Below, one piece after another: positions 2,382-52,353 of a DNA stretch of 64,000 nt. Below the pieces are notes generated by a model that saw nothing but the letters and a program-made list of their open reading frames with translations, had not been told where the DNA came from and did not search any database. Each line of letters starts with the position of its first letter. The first letter of the stretch is position 1. The translations under genes were made by a program, and so were the position numbers. This DNA is from Escherichia coli (lineage in GTDB: Bacteria > Pseudomonadota > Gammaproteobacteria > Enterobacterales > Enterobacteriaceae), in the NCBI RefSeq assembly GCF_003334305.1, contig NZ_QOWS01000008.1, one strand, 5' to 3'.

Positions 2382-4703
2382 ATGATGAATGATTCGTTCT
2401 GCCGCATTATTGCGGGTGAAATTCAGGCGCGCCCGGAACAGGTTGACGCTGCCGTTCGCCTGCTTGACGAAGGGAATACCGTGCCGTTTATCGCACGTTA
2501 TCGTAAGGAAATCACCGGCGGTCTGGATGACACGCAGCTGCGTAATCTGGAAACGCGTCTGAGCTATCTGCGCGAGCTGGAAGAGAGACGTCAGGCGATC
2601 CTCAAATCCATTTCCGAGCAAGGCAAACTCACCGATGATCTGGCGAAGGCCATCAACGCCACCCTAAGCAAAACCGAACTCGAAGACCTCTACCTGCCCT
2701 ACAAACCTAAACGCCGCACCCGCGGGCAAATCGCCATTGAAGCAGGGCTTGAGCCGTTGGCTGACCTGCTGTGGAGCGATCCGTCACACACGCCAGAAGT
2801 CGCCGCTGCACAATATGTTGATGCCGATAAAGGCGTGGCAGATACCAAAGCCGCGCTGGATGGCGCGCGCTATATCCTGATGGAACGGTTTGCCGAAGAT
2901 GCCGCGCTGCTGGCGAAAGTGCGTGATTATCTGTGGAAGAACGCGCATCTGGTCTCAACCGTGGTGAGCGGTAAAGAAGAGGAAGGGGCGAAATTCCGCG
3001 ACTATTTCGATCATCACGAACCGTTGTCCACGGTGCCTTCTCACCGCGCGCTGGCGATGTTCCGTGGGCGTAACGAAGGCGTACTCCAGCTTTCGCTGAA
3101 TGCCGATCCGCAGTTCGATGAGCCGCCCAAAGAGAGCTATTGCGAGCAAATCATCATGGATCACCTTGGCCTGCGCCTGAACAATGCCCCGGCGGATAGC
3201 TGGCGCAAAGGCGTAGTGAGCTGGACCTGGCGCATCAAGGTGCTGATGCATCTGGAAACCGAACTGATGGGTACCGTGCGCGAACGCGCGGAAGATGAAG
3301 CAATCAACGTCTTTGCCCGTAACCTGCACGATCTGCTGATGGCGGCCCCTGCCGGACTGCGTGCAACGATGGGCCTCGATCCGGGTCTGCGTACCGGGGT
3401 AAAAGTGGCGGTGGTCGATGCCACTGGCAAACTGGTGGCGACCGATACCATTTACCCGCACACCGGACAAGCCGCAAAAGCAGCGATGACCGTTGCTGCC
3501 TTGTGTGAAAAACATAACGTTGAACTGGTGGCGATCGGCAACGGTACAGCTTCCCGCGAAACTGAACGTTTCTATCTCGACGTGCAGAAGCAGTTCCCGA
3601 AAGTGACCGCACAGAAAGTGATCGTCAGCGAAGCTGGCGCGTCGGTTTACTCAGCTTCCGAGCTGGCAGCGCAGGAGTTCCCGGATCTCGACGTTTCGCT
3701 GCGTGGTGCGGTATCTATCGCCCGCCGTTTGCAGGATCCGCTGGCGGAGCTGGTGAAAATCGATCCGAAATCTATCGGCGTAGGTCAGTATCAGCATGAC
3801 GTCAGCCAGACGCAACTGGCCCGCAAACTGGATGCAGTAGTAGAAGACTGCGTAAACGCCGTTGGCGTCGATCTCAACACCGCTTCTGTTCCGCTATTAA
3901 CCCGCGTGGCGGGCCTGACGCGCATGATGGCGCAAAACATCGTGGCCTGGCGCGATGAGAACGGCCAGTTCAAGAACCGTCAGCAACTGCTGAAAGTCAG
4001 CCGTCTGGGGCCGAAAGCCTTCGAGCAGTGCGCGGGCTTCCTGCGCATTAACCACGGTGATAACCCGCTGGACGCCTCTACCGTTCACCCGGAAGCCTAT
4101 CCGGTGGTGGAACGCATTCTGGCAGCAACACAGCAGGCACTGAAAGATCTGATGGGTAACAGCAGCGAACTGCGTAACCTGAAAGCGTCTGACTTTACTG
4201 ATGAAAAATTCGGTGTGCCGACAGTAACTGACATCATCAAAGAGCTGGAAAAACCGGGTCGCGATCCGCGTCCGGAATTTAAAACCGCTCAGTTTGCCGA
4301 TGGCGTCGAGACAATGAACGACCTGCAACCGGGTATGATCCTCGAAGGCGCTGTCACCAACGTCACCAACTTTGGCGCGTTTGTCGATATTGGCGTGCAT
4401 CAGGACGGCCTGGTTCACATCTCTTCATTGTCGAACAAGTTTGTGGAAGATCCGCATACCGTGGTGAAAGCGGGCGACATTGTGAAGGTGAAAGTGCTGG
4501 AAGTGGATCTTCAGCGTAAACGTATCGCCCTGACCATGCGTCTGGACGAGCAGCCTGGCGAAACCAACGCCCGTCGCGGCGGCGGTAATGAACGCCCGCA
4601 AAACAACCGCCCGGCAGCCAAACCACGCGGTCGTGAAGCGCAGCCTGCCGGTAATAGCGCGATGATGGATGCGCTGGCGGCGGCAATGGGCAAAAAACGT
4701 TAA
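2382..4703 (+). CDS. tex: Tex/YhgF transcription accessory protein with C-terminal S1 RNA-binding domain (773 aa)
   Basis: 773-aa [23 protein letters not shown]... with YqgF/RNase H-like and HhH regions and a C-terminal S1 domain ([32 protein letters not shown]). Confidence 0.93.
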
Positions 4704-4784
4704 ACGCCCTGATTGACCCCTAAACCTGCGCGATAAGGTGTCCACGCCGCATCTGGCAACGAACGCCTTGTCTGACATAAAAGT

Positions 4785-4812
4785 GCCGGAGAATATCTCC
4801 GGCCTTTTTATT
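4785..4812 (+). terminator. Intrinsic terminator downstream of tex
   Basis: GC hairpin GCCGGAGAATATCTCCGGC followed directly by CTTTTTATT. Confidence 0.6.
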
Positions 4813-5004
4813 CCACAACCAAACTCATAATATATTCCGGCAATATTTATCACTTCATTAACAACTGAAACCTTAATTAAACATTAGCCAGTCCGGGTAA
4901 TTCACTATTCGAATTATATTTTCGCTGCGATATAACCTTGAGCCACATCAACATTGAGTCAGATTATTATTCAAACCAACATTCGCACACATTTTAAGTA
5001 TTGC

Positions 5005-5031
5005 TGATAGAAACCATTCTCATTATCATTG
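5005..5031 (+). promoter_or_regulatory. Candidate Fur box in the feoABC promoter region
   Basis: TGATAGAAACCATTCTCATTATCATTG resembles the GATAATGATAATCATTATC Fur consensus, about 110 bp upstream of the feoA ATG. Confidence 0.5.
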
Positions 5032-5140
5032 TGTTGTTGATTATTTAATCTCTCCTTTGTTGGCAAATCATCTGGTCTCATGTCGCTGTCAAACGCCCCA
5101 TGAGGTAGTTATCCAGTTAATGAGAAACAAGTAGGCACCT

Positions 5141-5368
5141 ATGCAATACACTCCAGATACTGCGTGGAAAATCACTGGCTTTTCCCGTGAAATCAGCCCG
5201 GCATATCGCCAAAAACTGCTTTCTCTTGGCATGTTACCTGGCTCCTCTTTTAATGTGGTGCGCGTCGCTCCACTCGGCGACCCCATTCATATCGAAACCC
5301 GTCGTGTGAGCCTGGTATTACGCAAAAAAGATCTGGCCTTATTAGAAGTGGAAGCGGTTTCCTGTTAA
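5141..5368 (+). CDS. feoA: Ferrous iron transport protein FeoA (75 aa)
   Basis: 75-aa [40 protein letters not shown]..., SH3-like FeoA, directly upstream of feoB. Confidence 0.93.
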
Positions 5369-5384
5369 TACGGTGATAACAACA

Positions 5385-7706
5385 ATGAAAAAATTAACCA
5401 TAGGCTTAATTGGTAATCCAAATTCTGGCAAGACAACCTTATTTAACCAGCTCACTGGCGCACGTCAGCGTGTAGGTAACTGGGCTGGCGTTACCGTCGA
5501 ACGTAAAGAAGGGCAATTCTCCACCACCGATCATCAGGTCACGCTGGTGGACCTGCCCGGCACCTATTCTCTGACCACCATCTCATCGCAGACCTCGCTC
5601 GATGAGCAAATCGCCTGTCACTACATTTTGAGTGGCGACGCCGACCTGCTGATTAACGTGGTGGATGCGTCTAACCTTGAGCGTAACCTGTACCTGACGC
5701 TACAACTGCTGGAACTCGGCATTCCCTGCATCGTGGCACTGAACATGCTCGACATTGCCGAGAAGCAAAATATTCGTATTGAAATTGATACTCTGTCGGC
5801 GCGTCTTGGCTGCCCAGTGATCCCGCTGGTTTCAACCCGTGGTCGCGGTATTGAAGCGCTCAAGCTGGCGATTGATCGCTATAAAGCTAACGAGAATGTG
5901 GAACTGGTGCATTACGCACAGCCGCTACTCAACGAAGCAGATTCACTGGCAAAAGTGATGCCTTCCGACATCCCGCTGAAACAACGTCGCTGGCTGGGCC
6001 TGCAAATGCTGGAAGGCGATATCTACAGCCGCGCCTACGCCGGTGAAGCGTCGCAGCATCTGGATGCCGCCCTCGCCCGTCTGCGTAATGAGATGGACGA
6101 TCCGGCGCTGCACATTGCCGATGCGCGTTACCAGTGCATTGCTGCCATCTGTGATGTGGTAAGCAACACCCTGACGGCAGAACCCAGCCGTTTCACCACT
6201 GCGGTAGATAAAATCGTGCTCAACCGTTTCCTCGGTCTGCCGATTTTCCTCTTTGTGATGTACCTGATGTTCCTGCTGGCTATCAACATCGGCGGGGCGT
6301 TACAGCCGCTGTTTGACGTCGGCTCCGTGGCGCTATTTGTGCATGGTATTCAATGGATTGGCTACACGCTCCACTTCCCGGACTGGCTGACTATCTTCCT
6401 CGCCCAGGGCCTGGGTGGCGGCATTAACACCGTGCTGCCACTGGTGCCGCAGATTGGCATGATGTACCTGTTCCTCTCCTTCCTTGAGGACTCCGGGTAT
6501 ATGGCGCGTGCGGCGTTTGTGATGGACCGTCTGATGCAGGCGCTGGGCTTGCCGGGGAAATCCTTTGTGCCGCTGATCGTCGGTTTCGGTTGTAACGTAC
6601 CGTCGGTAATGGGTGCACGTACGCTTGATGCACCGCGTGAACGTCTGATGACCATCATGATGGCACCGTTTATGTCCTGCGGCGCGCGTCTGGCTATCTT
6701 CGCAGTATTCGCGGCTGCCTTCTTCGGGCAGAACGGTGCGCTGGCGGTCTTCTCGCTGTATATGCTGGGTATTGTGATGGCGGTGCTGACTGGCCTGATG
6801 CTCAAGTACACCATCATGCGCGGTGAAGCGACGCCGTTTGTCATGGAGTTGCCGGTCTATCATGTACCACACGTTAAAAGCCTGATTATCCAGACCTGGC
6901 AGCGTCTGAAAGGCTTCGTTCTGCGTGCTGGTAAAGTGATCATCATCGTCAGCATTTTCCTGAGCGCTTTCAACAGCTTCTCGCTGAGCGGGAAAATCGT
7001 CGATAACATCAACGACTCGGCGCTGGCGTCCGTCAGCCGGGTGATCACCCCGGTCTTCAAGCCAATTGGCGTGCATGAAGATAACTGGCAGGCAACGGTT
7101 GGCCTGTTTACAGGTGCCATGGCGAAAGAAGTGGTAGTGGGTACGCTCAACACCCTCTACACCGCAGAAAATATTCAGGACGAAGAGTTCAATCCGGCAG
7201 AATTTAACCTCGGTGAAGAGCTGTTCAGTGCGATAGATGAAACCTGGCAGAGCCTGAAAGACACCTTCAGCCTTAGCGTACTGATGAACCCCATTGAAGC
7301 CAGCAAAGGCGACGGCGAAATGGGTACCGGGGCGATGGGCGTGATGGATCAGAAATTCGGTAGCGCAGCAGCAGCTTACAGCTACCTGATTTTCGTCCTG
7401 CTGTATGTACCATGTATCTCGGTGATGGGAGCCATCGCCCGTGAATCAAGCCGTGGCTGGATGGGCTTCTCCATCCTGTGGGGGCTGAATATCGCTTACT
7501 CGCTGGCAACATTGTTCTATCAGGTCGCCAGCTACAGTCAGCACCCAACTTACAGCCTGGTGTGCATTCTGGCGGTTATCCTGTTTAACATCGTGGTTAT
7601 CGGTCTGCTGCGCCGCGCGCGTAGCCGGGTGGATATCGAACTGCTGGCAACCCGCAAGTCGGTAAGCAGTTGCTGCGCAGCCAGCACCACCGGTGATTGC
7701 CATTAA
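5385..7706 (+). CDS. feoB: Ferrous iron transporter FeoB, G-protein domain plus polytopic membrane domain (773 aa)
   Basis: Track ORF begins at an upstream GTG (5373); the ATG at 5385 gives [25 protein letters not shown] (P-loop GTPase) followed by a multi-TM permease domain. Confidence 0.95.
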
Positions 7707-7942
7707 TGGCTTCACTTATTCAGGTGCGCGATTTGCTGGCGTTACGGGGCCGTATGGAAGCGGCCCAGATAAGCCAGACATTGAACACTCCACAGCCAAT
7801 GATTAACGCCATGCTGCAACAACTGGAAAGTATGGGCAAAGCCGTGCGGATTCAGGAAGAACCTGACGGCTGCCTCTCTGGCAGTTGTAAAAGCTGCCCG
7901 GAAGGAAAAGCCTGTCTGCGCGAGTGGTGGGCGCTGCGTTAA
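7706..7942 (+). CDS. feoC: FeoC, small winged-helix protein of the feo operon (78 aa)
   Basis: The ATG at 7706 overlaps the feoB TAA by 1 nt (TAATG). Product [27 protein letters not shown]... carries the cysteine cluster [15 protein letters not shown]. Confidence 0.88.
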
Positions 7943-7968
7943 CCTTACTCCATCGCCTGTTTTGGAAA

Positions 7969-7999
7969 GCCCGGTATGCGTCTGCATCCGGGCTTTTTT
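7969..7999 (+). terminator. Intrinsic terminator of the feoABC operon
   Basis: Hairpin GCCCGGTATGCGTCTGCATCCGGGC followed by TTTTTTG. Confidence 0.65.
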
Positions 8000-8144
8000 G
8001 CGTGCGGCTTTCCATAAAAATGCAACTCTTGCAGCACGGCGTAAGTTCCTTTGAAAGCATCTCGCAGGGATGAAAACTCGCTAATGCACAGATGTGGAGT
8101 GGCGCGTAGAGTCGCGGCATTCAAACAACAGGTGAAGGAACGCC

Positions 8145-9023
8145 ATGAGTAAAAAGCAGAGTTCCACCCCACATGATGCGCTGTTCAAACTCTTTTTACG
8201 CCAACCGGACACGGCTCGCGATTTTCTTGCGTTCCATTTACCGGCCCCCATTCACGCGCTCTGTGATATGAAAACCCTCAAGCTGGAGTCGAGCAGCTTT
8301 ATTGATGACGATCTGCGTGAAAGCTATTCCGATGTGCTGTGGTCGGTGAAAACGGAACAAGGACCAGGATACATCTATTGTCTGATTGAACATCAAAGCA
8401 CCTCAAACAAACTGATCGCATTTCGCATGATGCGTTAAGCTATTGCCGCAATGCAAAATCACCTTGATGCTGGATACAAAACGTTGCCGATGGTGGTGCT
8501 ATTGTTGTTTTACCACGGTATTGAAAGCCCCTATCCCTATTCGCTGTGTTGGCTGGATTGTTTCGCCGATCCCAAACTGGCAAGGCAGCTTTATGCCTCC
8601 GCATTTCCGCTGATTGATGTCACCGTCATGCCTGATGATGAAATCATGCAGCACCGACGTATGGCGCTGCTGGAGTTAATTCAAAAACATATTCGTCAAC
8701 GCGACCTGATGGGGCTGGTAGAGCAAATGGCCTGCTTATTAAGTAGTGGATACGCTAATGACAGACAAATCAAAGGGCTGTTTAATTACATACTGCAAAC
8801 CGGCGACGCGGTACGTTTTAACGATTTTATCGACGGCGTTGCCGAACGTTCACCGAAACACAAGGAGAGTTTAATGACAATTGCGGAAAGATTGCGGCAG
8901 GAGGGGGAACAATCCAAAGCCCTGCATATAGCCAAAATAATGCTTGAATCCGGAGTCCCTCTTACAGACATCATGCGCTTTACCGGGGTGTCAGAAGAAG
9001 AGTTGGCTGCGGCGAGCCAGTAA
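8145..9023 (+). pseudogene. rpnA: rpnA/yhgA (recombination-promoting nuclease, PDDEXK/transposase_31 family) split by an in-frame TAA at 8436-8438
   Basis: Track ORFs 8145..8438 (97 aa, [17 protein letters not shown]...FRMMR*) and 8451..9023 (190 aa) are in the same frame, separated only by TAA and four sense codons (AIAA). Read through, they total 292 codons, which is the length I recall for intact YhgA. Confidence 0.75.
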
Positions 9024-9051
9024 ATTTCTGTCTCGCCATTTCAAAAGTTGC

Positions 9052-10543
<1,492 letters not shown>

Positions 10544-24779: not shown

Positions 24780-25519
24780 ATATGATGGTCCGTCAGCACC
24801 TGCATTACGCTTACTGGCGGCGGGGCGTCGGTGTAGACGGCATCTACCATGCTGATGCTGCCCATATTGACCATCGCGTTACGGCCAAATTTCGAGTGAT
24901 CGACAACCAGCATAACGTGGCGCGAGTTCTCAATAATGGCGCGCTTGGTGCGAACTTCGTGGTAATCGAACTCCAGCAACGAGCCGTCGCTATCGATGCC
25001 GCTTATCCCCAGAATGCCGAAATCAAGGCGGAACTGGGAGATAAAATCGAGCGTCGCTTCGCCAATGATCCCGCCATCGCGGCTGCGTAATTCGCCACCG
25101 GCGAGAATAATGCGGAAATCTTCTTTTACCATCAACGTGTTAGCAACATTGAGATTGTTGGTGACAATACGCAAATTGCTGTGATTAAGCAGCGCGTGCG
25201 CCACCGCTTCCGGCGTGGTGCCGATATCGATAAACAGTGTCGAGCCGTTGGGGATTTGCTCCGCCACTTTGCGGGCAATCCTCTCTTTTTCTTCGGTCTG
25301 GGTGGCTTTGCGATCGTGCCACGGCGTGTTAACCGAACTGGAAGGCAGCGCCGCACCGCCATGGTGACGCAGGATCAGGTTTTGCTCCGCCAGCTCATTG
25401 AGGTCGCGGCGAATAGTCTGCGGGCTGACGGAGAAATGCTCTACCAGCTCTTCAGTACTGACATAACCCTGCTGTTTAACCAGTTCGATAATACCGTTGT
25501 GACGTTGTGTTTGTTTCAT
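24761..25519 (-). CDS. glpR: DeoR-family glycerol-3-phosphate regulon repressor GlpR (252 aa)
   Basis: 252-aa ORF MKQTQRHNGIIELVKQQGYVSTEELVEHFSVSPQTIRRDL.... Its 3' end overlaps the rtcR 3' end by 19 nt (convergent). Confidence 0.93.
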   Translation of the reverse strand: MKQTQRHNGIIELVKQQGYVSTEELVEHFSVSPQTIRRDLNELAEQNLILRHHGGAALPSSSVNTPWHDRKATQTEEKERIARKVAEQIPNGSTLFIDIGTTPEAVAHALLNHSNLRIVTNNLNVANTLMVKEDFRIILAGGELRSRDGGIIGEATLDFISQFRLDFGILGISGIDSDGSLLEFDYHEVRTKRAIIENSRHVMLVVDHSKFGRNAMVNMGSISMVDAVYTDAPPPVSVMQVLTDHHIQLELC

Positions 25520-25535
25520 TTATAAATCCCTGGAA

Positions 25536-26378
<843 letters not shown>

Positions 26379-26410
26379 TTATTCCACACAAAAGGGGACA
26401 GTATAAAGCG

Positions 26411-26815
<405 letters not shown>

Positions 26816-26875
26816 TTATACATATCACTCTAAAATGTTTTTTCAATGTTACCTAAAGCGCGATTCTTTGCTAAT

Positions 26876-26893
26876 ATGTTCGATAACGAACAT
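26876..26893. promoter_or_regulatory. GlpR operator palindrome in the glpD / glpEGR divergent control region
   Basis: Perfect inverted repeat ATGTTCGATAACGAACAT about 35 bp upstream of the glpD ATG, with a related half-site just downstream (TTTAACGAAAGTGA). Confidence 0.6.
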
Positions 26894-26926
26894 TTATGAG
26901 CTTTAACGAAAGTGAATGAGGGCAGC

Positions 26927-28432
26927 ATGGAAACCAAAGATCTGATTGTGATAGGTGGCGGCATCAATGGTGCTGGTATCGCGGCAGACGCCGCTGGACG
27001 CGGTTTATCCGTGCTGATGCTGGAGGCGCAGGATCTCGCTTGCGCGACCTCTTCCGCCAGTTCAAAACTCATTCACGGTGGCCTGCGCTACCTTGAGCAC
27101 TATGAATTCCGCCTGGTCAGCGAGGCGCTGGCTGAACGTGAAGTGCTGCTGAAAATGGCTCCGCATATCGCCTTCCCGATGCGTTTTCGCCTGCCACATC
27201 GTCCGCATCTGCGCCCGGCGTGGATGATTCGGATTGGTCTGTTTATGTACGATCATCTGGGTAAACGCACCAGCCTGCCGGGATCAACCGGTTTGCGTTT
27301 TGGCGCAAACTCAGTGTTAAAACCGGAAATTAAGCGCGGATTCGAATATTCTGACTGTTGGGTAGACGACGCCCGTCTGGTACTCGCCAACGCCCAGATG
27401 GTGGTGCGTAAAGGCGGCGAAGTGCTTACTCGGACTCGCGCCACCTCTGCTCGCCGCGAAAACGGCCTGTGGATTGTGGAAGCGGAAGATATCGATACCG
27501 GCAAAAAATATAGCTGGCAAGCGCGCGGTCTGGTTAACGCCACCGGCCCGTGGGTGAAACAGTTCTTCGACGAGGGGATGCATCTGCCTTCGCCTTATGG
27601 CATTCGCCTGATCAAAGGCAGCCATATTGTGGTGCCGCGTGTGCATACCCAGAAGCAGGCCTACATTCTGCAAAACGAAGATAAACGTATTGTGTTCGTG
27701 ATCCCGTGGATGGACGAATTTTCCATCATCGGCACCACCGACGTAGAGTATAAAGGCGATCCGAAAGCGGTGAAGATTGAAGAGAGTGAAATCAACTACC
27801 TGCTGAAAGTGTATAACGCGCACTTTAAAAAGCAGCTAAGCCGTGACGATATCGTCTGGACCTACTCCGGTGTGCGTCCGCTGTGTGATGATGAGTCCGA
27901 CTCGCCGCAAGCCATTACCCGTGATTACACCCTTGATATCCATGATGAAAACGGCAAAGCACCGCTGCTGTCGGTATTCGGCGGTAAGCTGACCACCTAC
28001 CGCAAACTGGCGGAACATGCGCTGGAAAAACTGACGCCGTATTATCAGGGCATTGGCCCGGCGTGGACGAAAGAGAGCGTGCTGCCGGGTGGTGCCATTG
28101 AAGGCGACCGCGACGATTACGCCGCTCGCCTGCGCCGCCGTTACCCGTTCCTGACTGAATCGCTGGCGCGTCATTACGCACGCACTTACGGCAGCAACAG
28201 CGAGCTGCTGCTCGGCAATGCGGGGGCGATAAGCGACCTCGGGGAGGATTTCGGTCATGAGTTCTACGAAGCGGAACTGAAATACCTGGTGGATCACGAA
28301 TGGGTCCGCCGCACCGACGATGCCCTTTGGCGTCGCACAAAACAAGGCATGTGGCTGAATGCGGATCAACAATCTCGTGTGAGTCAGTGGCTGGTGGAAT
28401 ATACGCAGCAGAAGTTGTCGCTGGCGTCGTAA
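26927..28432 (+). CDS. glpD: Aerobic glycerol-3-phosphate dehydrogenase GlpD (501 aa)
   Basis: Track ORF 26912..28432; the internal ATG at 26927 gives METKDLIVIGGGINGAGIAADAAGRG... (FAD-binding GxGxxG). Confidence 0.95.
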   Translation: METKDLIVIGGGINGAGIAADAAGRGLSVLMLEAQDLACATSSASSKLIHGGLRYLEHYEFRLVSEALAEREVLLKMAPHIAFPMRFRLPHRPHLRPAWMIRIGLFMYDHLGKRTSLPGSTGLRFGANSVLKPEIKRGFEYSDCWVDDARLVLANAQMVVRKGGEVLTRTRATSARRENGLWIVEAEDIDTGKKYSWQARGLVNATGPWVKQFFDEGMHLPSPYGIRLIKGSHIVVPRVHTQKQAYILQNEDKRIVFVIPWMDEFSIIGTTDVEYKGDPKAVKIEESEINYLLKVYNAHFKKQLSRDDIVWTYSGVRPLCDDESDSPQAITRDYTLDIHDENGKAPLLSVFGGKLTTYRKLAEHALEKLTPYYQGIGPAWTKESVLPGGAIEGDRDDYAARLRRRYPFLTESLARHYARTYGSNSELLLGNAGAISDLGEDFGHEFYEAELKYLVDHEWVRRTDDALWRRTKQGMWLNADQQSRVSQWLVEYTQQKLSLAS

Positions 28433-28483: not shown

Positions 28484-29089
28484 TCATTGTAAATAATTGA
28501 ATAACGGCCCCTGAGCTAAAATCGCCAAACTTAAGCACGTTACCCAATCGCCCCACTTCTTCCTCTGGTTTCTATTTTTTCTGCACCAATGGCAATAATA
28601 TCCCCATGCAAAACCAAGCTGTGCACTAATCGGGCCGACAAAATCAGTCCAAGGCTGCGGCCAAAAAGGGGAAAAATTCAGGGGAGGCCAGACAAACGTC
28701 AGAAAGAAATTTCGGATATTTTCCAGCAACGCTGATTTCTCTGGAGAAATATAAAGAATGAAATTCGAGAGAATTAACCAGAAATAGACCGGCGAAAAGA
28801 CCAGCCAGCAATGCAGTCTGTTTTTTAATTCAGGAGGCGTTCTGCGGGAGAATTGCCAACCGATGCCAGCCATTACACTGAAAAAAAGTGCATATTCAAC
28901 CATTAACTCAAGTTGTAATTCCTGAAGAGAAATACGCACAACCAGGAGCGGAAAGGAGAATATTATTTCTGCCAGAAAAGTTAACGTGAATATAAGTACG
29001 GCTAAGACAATAACCGTCGGCCATACCAATAATGGCACGATAACAAAACCGAGAATTACAGGGGGAATATAAAGCCGGAATTTAATCAT
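28484..29089 (-). CDS. Hypothetical small polytopic membrane protein (201 aa), last gene of the unknown four-gene operon
   Basis: ATG start; 201-aa ORF MIKFRLYIPPVILGFVIVPLLVWPTVIVLAVLIF... with about 4-5 hydrophobic spans and a basic C-terminal segment (WCRKNRNQRKKW). The start lies 2 nt after the stop of the upstream gene. I do not recognise a family. Confidence 0.55.
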   Translation of the reverse strand: MIKFRLYIPPVILGFVIVPLLVWPTVIVLAVLIFTLTFLAEIIFSFPLLVVRISLQELQLELMVEYALFFSVMAGIGWQFSRRTPPELKNRLHCWLVFSPVYFWLILSNFILYISPEKSALLENIRNFFLTFVWPPLNFSPFWPQPWTDFVGPISAQLGFAWGYYCHWCRKNRNQRKKWGDWVTCLSLAILAQGPLFNYLQ

Positions 29090-29091
29090 TT

Positions 29092-29859
29092 TTATTTTCC
29101 TGGTGATTCGGATGATGCGTCATACATCGCGCATAAACACTCATCAATTATCCAGTCATCTTCCCAGACCTGATATTCTGTCATTGGTTCGGGCTGTTTT
29201 AGCGGATTCTCAATCGCTTGCCGCGCTCTTTCTTTCAGTAAAGGATGATTATTTCTAGCCCAGGCATTGATTTGGGTGGTAATGACGTTATCGATATCGT
29301 CCTGGTTATCTCTGATATAATCCTCACAATATCTGTTCAATAAACAGGCAAGAGAAACGGTCGACCAAAAGCCGGGAACTGAATTAATGGCATCCAGCAA
29401 TGGCGCAAGAGCGATATCGGCACGGAAAAACATTTCCAGCATATACTGTAATTCGACAGCTTCATCGCCGGATACCCAATCAGTCATATACTGGCAGGCA
29501 AATCGCTGTAAAATTGCCCGTTCATCCGCACGCCAGTTTTCTTTACTGGCAAGGTTTATACGCCGTAGAGAAAAAACTACGTGAATATTGTCAAAATGCC
29601 CCTGTGCAACAAATTCCAGTAAACGCGGCAGAAAATAGCGGACCTCATCGCTATTTTGCGGATCAGGCCCTGGGCTACTATTCCAGGCATTGATTAAGGA
29701 ATACGGGATCGCTCGTAACGATGTACTCCGTAATGCCTTTTGTTCCTGCTGACTCAGGCAATATTCACAACAAACCACAAATTTCTGCGGCACCTGATAA
29801 CGACGAAAGGTGTGATAAATCTGCTCAATTAATGCCTGCATGGCGGGGCTGGGTTGCAT
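29092..29859 (-). CDS. Hypothetical soluble acidic protein (255 aa), third gene of the unknown operon
   Basis: ATG start; MQPSPAMQALIEQIYHTFRRYQVPQKFVVCCEYCLSQQEQ... with Cys motifs (CCEYC, DECLC). Its stop is 2 nt from the next start. No recognisable family. Confidence 0.55.
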   Translation of the reverse strand: MQPSPAMQALIEQIYHTFRRYQVPQKFVVCCEYCLSQQEQKALRSTSLRAIPYSLINAWNSSPGPDPQNSDEVRYFLPRLLEFVAQGHFDNIHVVFSLRRINLASKENWRADERAILQRFACQYMTDWVSGDEAVELQYMLEMFFRADIALAPLLDAINSVPGFWSTVSLACLLNRYCEDYIRDNQDDIDNVITTQINAWARNNHPLLKERARQAIENPLKQPEPMTEYQVWEDDWIIDECLCAMYDASSESPGK

Positions 29860-29861
29860 AG

Positions 29862-49949: not shown

Positions 49950-51128
49950 ATGAGTAATATTGTTTACCTGACAGTAACGGGAGAACAACAAGGAAGCATC
50001 TCCGCAGGTTGTGGGACTTCTGAGTCTACAGGTAATCGTTGGCAGAGCGGGCATGAGGATGAAATATTTACATTCTCACTCTTAAATAATATTAATAATA
50101 CGGGGCTTGGTTCACAGTTCCATGGTATAACATTTTGTAAATTAATTGATAAAAGCACTCCATTATTTATTAATTCCATTAACAATAATGAACAATTATT
50201 TATGGGATTTGACTTCTATCGAATAAATAGATTTGGTAGATGGGAAAAGTATTATTATATACAACTAAAAGGCGCTTTTTTATCGGCTATTCATCATCAG
50301 ATCATTCAAAATCAACTGGATACAGAAACAATAACTGTTAGTTATGAATTTATCCTCTGTCAACATCTTATCGCAAATACCGAGTTCAGCTATTTGGCAC
50401 TCCCTGAAAATTATAACCGTTTGTTTTTACCAAATTCAAAAAACCAAACAAATAATCGTTTCAAAACGTTAAACAGCAAAGCTATTGGCAGGCTACTTGC
50501 TGCTGGTGGCGTATACAATGGGAACATTGAAGGATTCAGAGATACTGCGGAAAAACTGGGTGGAGATGCAATAAAAGGCTATGATCAAATACTAAATGAA
50601 AAAACAGCGGGCATAGCGATAGCAACAGCATCTATTCTTTTAACAAAGCGTTCTAATGTTGATACATATACAGAAATAAATAGTTACTTAGGCAAACTTA
50701 GAGGTCAACAAAAACTTCTTGATGGTATAGACATAATAGAAATAATATACATTAAGAGACCTTCAAAAGACTTAGCTAACTTACGAAAGGAGTTTAATAA
50801 AACTGTAAGAAAAAATTTTCTTATCAAACTTGCAAAAACCTCCGAAGCATCTGGAAGATTCAACGCCGAAGACCTTTTAAGAATGAGAAAGGGCAATGTT
50901 CCTCTAAATTATAATGTTCACCATAAACTATCTCTAGATGATGGTGGTACTAATGATTTCGAAAATTTAGTATTAATCGAAAACGAACCATATCATAAAG
51001 TTTTTACTAACATGCAATCACGAATAGCTAAGGGAATATTAGTAGGTGAAAGCAAAATCACTCCCTGGGCCATTCCATCTGGCTCAATTTATCCTCCCAT
51101 GAAAAATATTATGGACCACACAAAATGA
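49950..51128 (+). CDS. yhhZ: YhhZ-like polymorphic toxin (392 aa): N-terminal Hcp-like domain fused to a C-terminal HNH (beta-beta-alpha-metal) nuclease domain
   Basis: The N-terminus (MSNIVYLTVTGEQQGSISAGCGTS...) resembles Hcp/TssD. The C-terminus carries NYNVHHKLSLDDGGTNDFENLVLIENEPYHKVF (HH...N...H). Local sequence is strongly AT-rich compared with the flanking genes. Confidence 0.8.
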   Translation: MSNIVYLTVTGEQQGSISAGCGTSESTGNRWQSGHEDEIFTFSLLNNINNTGLGSQFHGITFCKLIDKSTPLFINSINNNEQLFMGFDFYRINRFGRWEKYYYIQLKGAFLSAIHHQIIQNQLDTETITVSYEFILCQHLIANTEFSYLALPENYNRLFLPNSKNQTNNRFKTLNSKAIGRLLAAGGVYNGNIEGFRDTAEKLGGDAIKGYDQILNEKTAGIAIATASILLTKRSNVDTYTEINSYLGKLRGQQKLLDGIDIIEIIYIKRPSKDLANLRKEFNKTVRKNFLIKLAKTSEASGRFNAEDLLRMRKGNVPLNYNVHHKLSLDDGGTNDFENLVLIENEPYHKVFTNMQSRIAKGILVGESKITPWAIPSGSIYPPMKNIMDHTK

Positions 51129-51619
51129 TGACTAAAACCCAAATAAATAAATTAATAAAAATGATGAATGATTTAGACTATCCATTTGAAGCACCGCTCA
51201 AGGAATCATTTATTGAAAGTATAATCCAAATAGAATTTAATTCTAATTCAACTAATTGCCTGGAGAAGTTATGTAATGAAGTTAGTATTCTTTTTAAGAA
51301 TCAACCTGATTATCTTACTTTTTTAAGAGCAATGGATGGATTCGAAGTTAATGGATTACGATTATTTAGCCTCTCGATTCCAGAACCTTCAGTTAAAAAC
51401 CTTTTTGCCGTAAATGAATTTTATAGAAATAATGATGATTTCATAAACCCTGATCTACAAGAACGGTTAGTGATCGGGGATGATAGCATTTCAATATTTA
51501 CTTATGACATTAAAAGTAACTTTTTTGAAATTAGAGATAATATTGGCACAGAAAATATATTCAGTTCGTTTAGTGATTTCTCTTCATTCTTAAACGAAAT
51601 CATGGACAGTTGTTCATAA
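51125..51619 (+). CDS. yrhA: YrhA-like putative immunity protein (164 aa), translationally coupled to yhhZ
   Basis: The ATG overlaps the yhhZ TGA (ATGA). Acidic 164-aa product MMTKTQINKLIKMMNDLDYPFEAPLKESFIES..., AT-rich. No IS1 sequence interrupts it. Confidence 0.65.
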   Translation: MMTKTQINKLIKMMNDLDYPFEAPLKESFIESIIQIEFNSNSTNCLEKLCNEVSILFKNQPDYLTFLRAMDGFEVNGLRLFSLSIPEPSVKNLFAVNEFYRNNDDFINPDLQERLVIGDDSISIFTYDIKSNFFEIRDNIGTENIFSSFSDFSSFLNEIMDSCS

Positions 51620-51713
51620 TAATCAAAAGGAAACAAAAATCATTGTAAACCATGCCATCTTTTTAGAGATTACCAGCAGAAAATTCCTTGTTCGAAATTT
51701 AGCAGTGCAAGCT

Positions 51714-51869
51714 ATGGAAAAACTTACAACGGAACTACACTCCTTAAGTGAGATGGACCGAAGACATGTAGTCTCTATTTTAGCCGAAATAGCTAATGGC
51801 TATGATGATTTTAATGACATGTTGATTTATTTAGAATTTTACCCGAATCATAAGATTCTGATATCTTAA
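51714..51869 (+). CDS. Small ORF (51 aa) in the AT-rich spacer, possible orphan immunity-gene remnant
   Basis: ATG...TAA frame encoding MEKLTTELHSLSEMDRRHVVSILAEIANGYDDFNDMLIYLEFYPNHKILIS. Below the 60-aa track cutoff, no clear Shine-Dalgarno. Confidence 0.2.
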   Translation: MEKLTTELHSLSEMDRRHVVSILAEIANGYDDFNDMLIYLEFYPNHKILIS

Positions 51870-52068
51870 ATAAGAAAATCCCGTTCGACGTTCTGAAAAA
51901 GAAATCATAAAATATTAGCAGATACTTATTTCGTGACTATATCTTATCCGATGAACTTTTTTCAAAACCAGCATTTAATAATATCTTTGACGAAGATGAA
52001 CGCGTCTTTGCTCAATGTATCACACAGGAATAATAATATAACACTCAACAATAATATTTATTATAATT

Positions 52069-52353
52069 ATGATTACTTATCACGACGCATTCGCGAAAGC
52101 GAACCATTACCTTGATGATGCAGATCTCCCGGTCGTCATTACTCTACATGGACGCTTTAGCCAGGGCTGGTATTTCTGTTTCGAAGCACGAGAATTTCTC
52201 GAAACTGGAGATGAGGCCGCGCGCTTAGCTGGTAACGCACCTTTTATTATTGATAAAGACAGTGGTGAAATTCATTCTCTGGGAACGGCAAAGCCGCTGG
52301 AAGAATATCTACAGGATTACGAAATAAAAAAGGCTACCTTCGGCTTGCCCTGA
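52069..52353 (+). CDS. yrhB: YrhB-like small protein (94 aa), putative immunity-type protein
   Basis: 94-aa ORF MITYHDAFAKANHYLDDADLPVVITLHGRFSQGWYFCFEAREFLETGDEAARLAGNAPFIIDKDSGEIHSL.... Confidence 0.8.
   Translation: MITYHDAFAKANHYLDDADLPVVITLHGRFSQGWYFCFEAREFLETGDEAARLAGNAPFIIDKDSGEIHSLGTAKPLEEYLQDYEIKKATFGLP

Follow-up and report, generated by a model that had tools for sequence, protein, structure and literature searches.

The copy of rpnA (yhgA) in the 64,000 nt stretch of Escherichia coli DNA analysed here (the window) is interrupted by a genuine, inherited nonsense allele, Y98* (TAC to TAA), which is a common polymorphism; the full-length toxic nuclease, RpnA_L, is lost, most likely leaving behind an antitoxin-only remnant, and we hold this overall reading with high confidence. 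Rpn systems are toxin-antitoxin or antiphage modules built as genes within genes, and the features of the locus, numbered by position in the window, are as follows.

8145-9023, + strand: rpnA (yhgA) frame of 292 codons plus stop, broken at codon 98 (ORF reading, NF007361, PF04754)
8145-8435, + strand: N-terminal 97 codons, with all the predicted active-site residues (D11, D63, E82, Q84, R94; residue positions, PMC5350276, PMC1913061)
8436-8438, + strand: in-frame TAA at codon 98, base 8438 being a C to A transversion of TAC (Tyr98; comparison with LD26-1 and the K-12-type allele)
8451-9023, + strand: downstream ORF of 190 codons, from Met103 (ORF list); the upstream 20 nt are TGCGTTAAGCTATTGCCGCA
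8862-8867, + strand: AAGGAG ribosome binding site (RBS) of rpnA_S, over codons K240/E241 and 6 nt before ATG 8874 (sequence; mutagenesis in PMC10400941)
8874-9023, + strand: rpnA_S, the nested in-frame gene for an intragenic antitoxin, M244 to Q292, 49 aa plus stop (PDB 7TH0, residues 244-292; ORF comparison)
9002-9021, both strands: terminator-like hairpin at the rpnA 3' end, facing the convergent bioH, the stop codon of which is at 9052-9054 (consensus scan only)

The interrupted frame and the cause of the interruption

The frame starts at ATG 8145 and runs for 97 sense codons to the TAA at 8436-8438, after which it passes through four codons, encoding AIAA, to ATG 8451, from where 190 codons lead to the TAA at 9021-9023; all of these parts lie in one frame, which amounts to 293 codons when the final stop is counted. 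The same arrangement, of two same-frame ORFs of 97 aa and 190 aa split by this TAA and four sense codons, had been described in an earlier note on this DNA and can be seen directly in the sequence. That note had also given 292 codons as the length of the intact gene, in agreement with K-12-type rpnA, which is 879 bp long and encodes 292 aa; this reference is annotated as one gene, rather than as two genes separated by the same stop, which was the circumstance that the note had named as counting against its reading.

When the stop is read through, with codon 98 entered as X, the frame matches the RpnA equivalog NF007361 from end to end (1-292 of 292) with a score of 688.2 bits, the curated cut-off being 583 bits, and a Pfam search of the read-through frame places PF04754 (transposase_31, YhgA-like PD-(D/E)XK) on residues 8-209 with 298.6 bits. 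A chance pairing of two ORFs is ruled out by these matches. The signature residues D11, D63, E82-x-Q84 and R94 are all present in the read-through frame, as is the PDDEI motif containing D165, and the gene order, feoB-feoC-rpnA-bioH-gntX-nfuA with bioH convergent, equals that of the K-12-type strain ME8067. The identification as YhgA/RpnA, a nuclease of the PD-(D/E)XK type, which the earlier note had proposed, is thereby borne out by the full-length NF007361 match, the PF04754 domain and synteny. The RpnA of K-12 (YhgA; PMC5350276) shares with the window allele the feoC-rpnA-bioH locus, the 292 codons and residues D11, D63, E82, Q84, R94 and D165, but differs in having TAC at codon 98 and at three amino acids elsewhere (P119L, A274T and L282V). 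The uninterrupted frame of RpnA is nevertheless broken here by the TAA at codon 98 and, as judged from its sequence, what is found here is an rpnA pseudogene and not a functional member of the family.

The cause of the interruption was found by aligning the window frame with annotated intact rpnA genes of complete genomes. Within rpnA, the intact allele of strain LD26-1 departs from the window at a single base, having C at 8438 and hence TAC, encoding Tyr98; that of ME8067 differs at 15 of 879 bases, and its codon 98 is also TAC. The C to A change at 8438 is the sole disabling difference from the intact alleles, and the lesion is a transversion converting Tyr98 to an ochre codon. The single-base nonsense mutation postulated in the earlier note is thus confirmed by the comparison with LD26-1; its expectation of a sense codon in the K-12-type gene was also correct as far as tyrosine is concerned, although the codon is TAC rather than the TAT that had been guessed.

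Frequency and history of the Y98* allele

The entire window is identical, at 64000 of 64000 bases, to part of the chromosome of E. coli strain A7, isolated from orangutan faeces (NZ_CP028767.1, 4440634-4504633), and RefSeq labels the gene in this identical stretch 'rpnA, pseudogene, internal stop', in line with the pseudogene call made from the window. A 61-mer centred on the stop (8408-8468) has a 100% match in 290 of 5,426 complete E. coli genomes, all of which must carry the A because alignments covering at least 80% of the 61-mer include its central base; this number is a lower bound, since carriers with a second SNP nearby escape an exact 61-mer. Twelve carriers were fetched, including EC11, A7, O43 RM10042, a record labelled 'DH5alpha', O27:H7 B4103-1, O178:H19 2012C-4431, O91 RM7190, ST2350, the mouse strain M19, strain 165 and CRE1540, and the sampled carriers come from cow, pig, mouse, human and orangutan hosts. 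Every one of the twelve has TAA at codon 98 and bears the RefSeq 'internal stop' flag, which bears out the comparison with other isolates that had been proposed as a check. The Y98* allele therefore occurs in 5% or more of complete E. coli genomes; it is a pseudogene of an ordinary sort, and RefSeq already marks it as one.

The earlier note had also suggested a sequencing error, such that the true genome would have TAC and an intact rpnA. The one-base difference from the nearest intact allele is a change that an error could make; against this, the same base is found in those 290 independently assembled complete genomes and was verified in 12 of the 12 that were sampled, the exact 97 aa and 190 aa ORF products each occur on at least 1000 contigs in a collection of 15 billion proteins, and the change at 8438 is a substitution lying outside any homopolymer. 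An error of sequencing or assembly thus retains next to no probability, and the suggestion can be set aside in favour of a genuine allele.

Alignment of ten carriers over about 10 kb reveals an invariant core, 8262-8878, lying within flanks (yhgF, feoB, bioH, gntX and nfuA) that form a block-wise mosaic. The 5' part of the gene itself, 8150-8261, resembles that of K-12 in three carriers and has yet another form in CRE1540, and the Y98* allele is found on at least three flanking haplotypes around the invariant core. As mosaic flanks surround this core, a single origin combined with recombination is suggested; the most parsimonious history would be one mutation on the window-type haplotype, the intact form of which survives in LD26-1, followed by spread through homologous recombination, with recurrent C to A mutation in place of a single origin being less parsimonious. 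Polymorphisms inside the gene among the carriers total ten, nine of them synonymous and two of them downstream of the stop, which is too few for selection among the TAA carriers to be measurable.

The 4.83 Mb record NZ_CP026085.1, labelled 'DH5alpha', has the TAA allele and non-K-12 flanks, whereas ME8067 (4.61 Mb) has an intact rpnA; the strain label of the former is probably wrong. Positions 1-25000 of the window are essentially the same (displayed identity 100.0%) across isolates of widely differing origin (orangutan, echidna, humans, chicken and a sink countertop), and this haplotype is widely dispersed. In the O91 strain RM7190, an IS621 element (IS110-like; locus 8018-8998, at about 11232 of the window) lies between nfuA and gntT, and is absent from the window.

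The truncated nuclease and the nested antitoxin gene

RpnA is a Mg2+-dependent, Ca2+-stimulated PD-(D/E)XK endonuclease, all in vivo phenotypes of which are lost in the D11A, D63A, E82A and Q84K mutants; the hyperactivity of D165A indicates that the non-core part of the domain matters too (Kingston et al. 2017, PMC5350276). The core is predicted to end with an alpha-helix containing R94, the motif IV residue, then a last beta-strand, followed by a helical region of about 150 residues (Knizewski et al. 2007, PMC1913061). A ribosome setting out from the rpnA ATG would stop after 97 residues, four residues past R94 and midway through the PF04754 domain, giving a product that has neither the last core beta-strand nor what remains of the transposase_31 domain, nor the C-terminal tail. 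Because the stop lies within the PD-(D/E)XK core, in mid-domain, full-length toxic RpnA_L is not made; its loss follows from the sequence taken together with the published mutagenesis, and Mg2+-dependent endonuclease activity, toxicity and SOS induction are expected to be absent as a consequence of the truncation.

The 3' end of the frame has a function of its own in the family. Zhong et al. 2023 (PMC10400941) found rpn genes to be genes within genes: RpnS, a small C-terminal protein made from an internal start, blocks the toxic RpnL, and RpnA_L in the absence of RpnA_S inhibits growth. The same paper places the internal start of rpnA at M244 with an RBS over K240/E241, both established by mutagenesis, and reports an internal transcription start from dRNA-seq in K-12, a short internal transcript more abundant than the full-length mRNA and, in K-12 grown in LB, detection of RpnA_S but not of RpnA_L. 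RpnL is also reported to come free of RpnS at alkaline pH. The window shares the M244 start, the AAGGAG RBS and the 49 aa ORF of this system (PMC10400941; PDB 7TH0), with two of the 49 residues differing from the crystallised K-12 RpnA_S; 7TH0 is the only solved structure matching the frame, and the rpnA_S product matches it with an E value of 2e-22.

An in-frame internal start with its own RBS is therefore present (AAGGAG 8862-8867, ATG 8874), but the functional full-length toxin that should share the frame is not, as the stop at codon 98 truncates RpnA_L; with its toxin half truncated, the window system is antitoxin-only at most. The stop lies 436 nt upstream of rpnA_S, which it leaves unchanged, and the RBS and 49 aa ORF are intact in the window and in all 12 sampled TAA carriers. 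Hence the locus appears most likely to be reduced to an antitoxin-only remnant, in which the toxin would be dead and the rpnA_S ORF kept. A consensus scan of 7900-9100 found no sigma-70 promoter site, so that the internal rpnA_S promoter rests on the published dRNA-seq, and polarity resulting from the premature stop could lower transcription downstream.

Small RpnS-type proteins encoded outside a working rpnL are also known from the free-standing rpnS genes (rpnE_Ss/ypaA and rpnC_Ss; DUF4351/PF14261), which in the published account (PMC10400941) are duplicates that originated downstream of an intact rpnL, whereas the rpnA_S of the window is what is left after inactivation of its host gene. PF14261 was not reported on the window frame by the Pfam search. 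A natural toxin-less rpnA allele was not found in the main text of Zhong et al. 2023 (PMC10400941).

Two other readings would restore some function to the interrupted frame. The first, put forward in the earlier note as a functional C-terminal fragment from ATG 8451, could be extended to a split nuclease, in which termination at 8436-8438 and reinitiation at ATG 8451 would yield 97 aa and 190 aa products that come together again as an enzyme, active or regulated. In E. coli, ribosomes are known to terminate and then reinitiate at a start codon close by, the stop here is only 12 nt from the in-frame ATG, the loss would be limited to five residues (98-102) and the downstream frame is open, with neither a second stop nor a frameshift, in all 12 fetched carriers. 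This open frame fits a young pseudogene as well as a downstream ORF still in use, and the carriers are too alike for it to show constraint. There is no Shine-Dalgarno sequence in the 20 nt upstream of ATG 8451, so any product from it would need termination-reinitiation; past the stop, the sole in-frame start with a strong Shine-Dalgarno sequence is ATG 8874, and the documented internal product is the 49 aa RpnA_S made from it, which speaks against the fragment proposed earlier. Furthermore, the break, four residues beyond R94, lies within what is predicted to be the last core alpha-helix and precedes the last beta-strand, making it a poor site for fragment complementation, and even the intact K-12 RpnA_L is, in the published account, already below detection. 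We regard a split nuclease as very unlikely.

The other such reading is that readthrough or suppression of the stop gives some full-length RpnA. Basal readthrough happens at any stop codon, but this one is TAA, the most efficient stop codon in E. coli, and the next base is G. No recoding signal is evident around it in 8415-8470, and recoding is not known from any member of the family (PMC10400941, PMC5350276). Given the TAA-G context and the lack of a sequence signal, programmed readthrough or recoding was rejected on priors, and the production of some full-length RpnA by any such route is extremely improbable. Loss of RpnA_L with retention of the rpnA_S ORF remains the preferred reading.

Other toxin-less alleles of rpnA and neighbouring observations

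The point mutation in the window is not the only lesion of its kind at this locus. Of the 5,426 complete genomes, 762 (about 14%) lack the nuclease-core segment 8222-8425; the junction of a 429 bp deletion (approximately 8222-8650) is found in 639 of these, leaving about 120 others without the segment. An out-of-frame deletion of 245 bp, 8181-8425, between direct repeats of CATGATGCG was seen in one sampled genome. A count of 332 genomes for the 61-mer spanning the 245 bp junction is unusable, as the two halves of an intact gene were joined as one place (one match spans 315 bp). Both types of N-terminal deletion resemble the window allele in affecting the same locus, in having lost the nuclease core, in keeping the rpnA_S ORF and in being RefSeq pseudogenes, and differ from it in being deletions rather than a point mutation; in the 245 bp type, the RBS is weakened from AAGGAG to AAGGTG. 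Taking Y98* and the deletions together, RpnA_L is lost in at least 1,052 of the 5,426 genomes (19%).

By comparison, the 3' segment 8850-9023, containing rpnA_S, has a match in 5,425 of the 5,426 genomes, at a coverage of 80% or more in 5,042. Coverage is below 80% in about 380 genomes, and those sampled from this group have a divergent allele with a 54 aa RpnA_S. Strain ECOCN22 (locus 1646-2758, corresponding to 8145-9051 of the window), for instance, has a divergent but intact rpnA encoding 297 aa, with a different, 54 aa, RpnA_S and some 200 additional bases separating rpnA from bioH; this allele is in keeping with the C-terminal tail of Rpn proteins, which has been described as hypervariable.

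This pattern of toxin loss with the antitoxin segment kept is consistent with selection either to retain the antitoxin or to be rid of the toxin, and we treat it as a lead rather than a finding. One form of the idea is that losing the self-toxic RpnA_L whilst keeping RpnA_S was favoured, so that Y98* spread by selection instead of by drift or hitch-hiking. In its favour are the three different lesions that eliminate RpnA_L (Y98* in 290 genomes or more, the 429 bp deletion in 639 and the 245 bp deletion in one sampled genome), the near-universal match to the rpnA_S segment, the position of the TAA core within mosaic flanks and the growth inhibition published for RpnA_L without RpnA_S. However, about three ancestral events lie behind the comparison, not some 1,050 independent ones, and the abutting convergent bioH, together with the shared terminator-like hairpin, may restrict deletion at the rpnA 3' end. 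The substitutions in the deletion-allele remnants are uninformative as well: no signal of relaxed or purifying selection can be read in them, because their differences from the window are almost all at third positions and reflect divergence older than the deletions. Finally, RpnS is reported to act only on its cognate RpnL (PMC10400941), so that an orphan RpnA_S would have no obvious target. Adaptive spread is an unlikely account of the allele. We consider decidedly unlikely the proposal that toxin-less alleles are kept as a stand-alone rpnA_S that is still useful, through neutralising RpnA_L brought in by recombination or transfer or in a regulatory role, or that toxin shedding has been repeatedly selected; a variant invoking the 97 aa and 190 aa products as a split nuclease is less likely still.

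For annotation, the gene should stand as an rpnA pseudogene (internal stop, Y98*) with the nested rpnA_S ORF noted as intact. Knowledge of the Rpn family is unchanged by a nonsense pseudogene of a known accessory gene that is already marked in the public annotation of the same genome; what is added is the survival of the nested antitoxin gene and the fact that many E. coli genomes have lost the RpnA toxin. The toxin is removed by at least three kinds of lesion in around a fifth of complete E. coli genomes, essentially all of which have a match to the antitoxin 3' segment, and these natural alleles could be used to find out whether an intragenic antitoxin left without its toxin is expressed and active.

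Two other parts of the window may be mentioned. Between glpD and glgP, at 28484-32096 on the - strand (3484-7096 of the A7 locus), the A7 annotation has four genes, three hypothetical and one for a 'PstS family phosphate ABC transporter substrate-binding protein'; K-12 is not known to have this four-gene block. At 49950-52353 on the + strand (24950-27353 of the A7 locus), a tssD gene of the Hcp1 family (1,179 bp) is annotated ahead of yrhA, yrhD and yrhB, and on this annotation the four genes apparently make up an orphan cluster, type VI effector-like in character, that is not close to any T6SS genes in the window.
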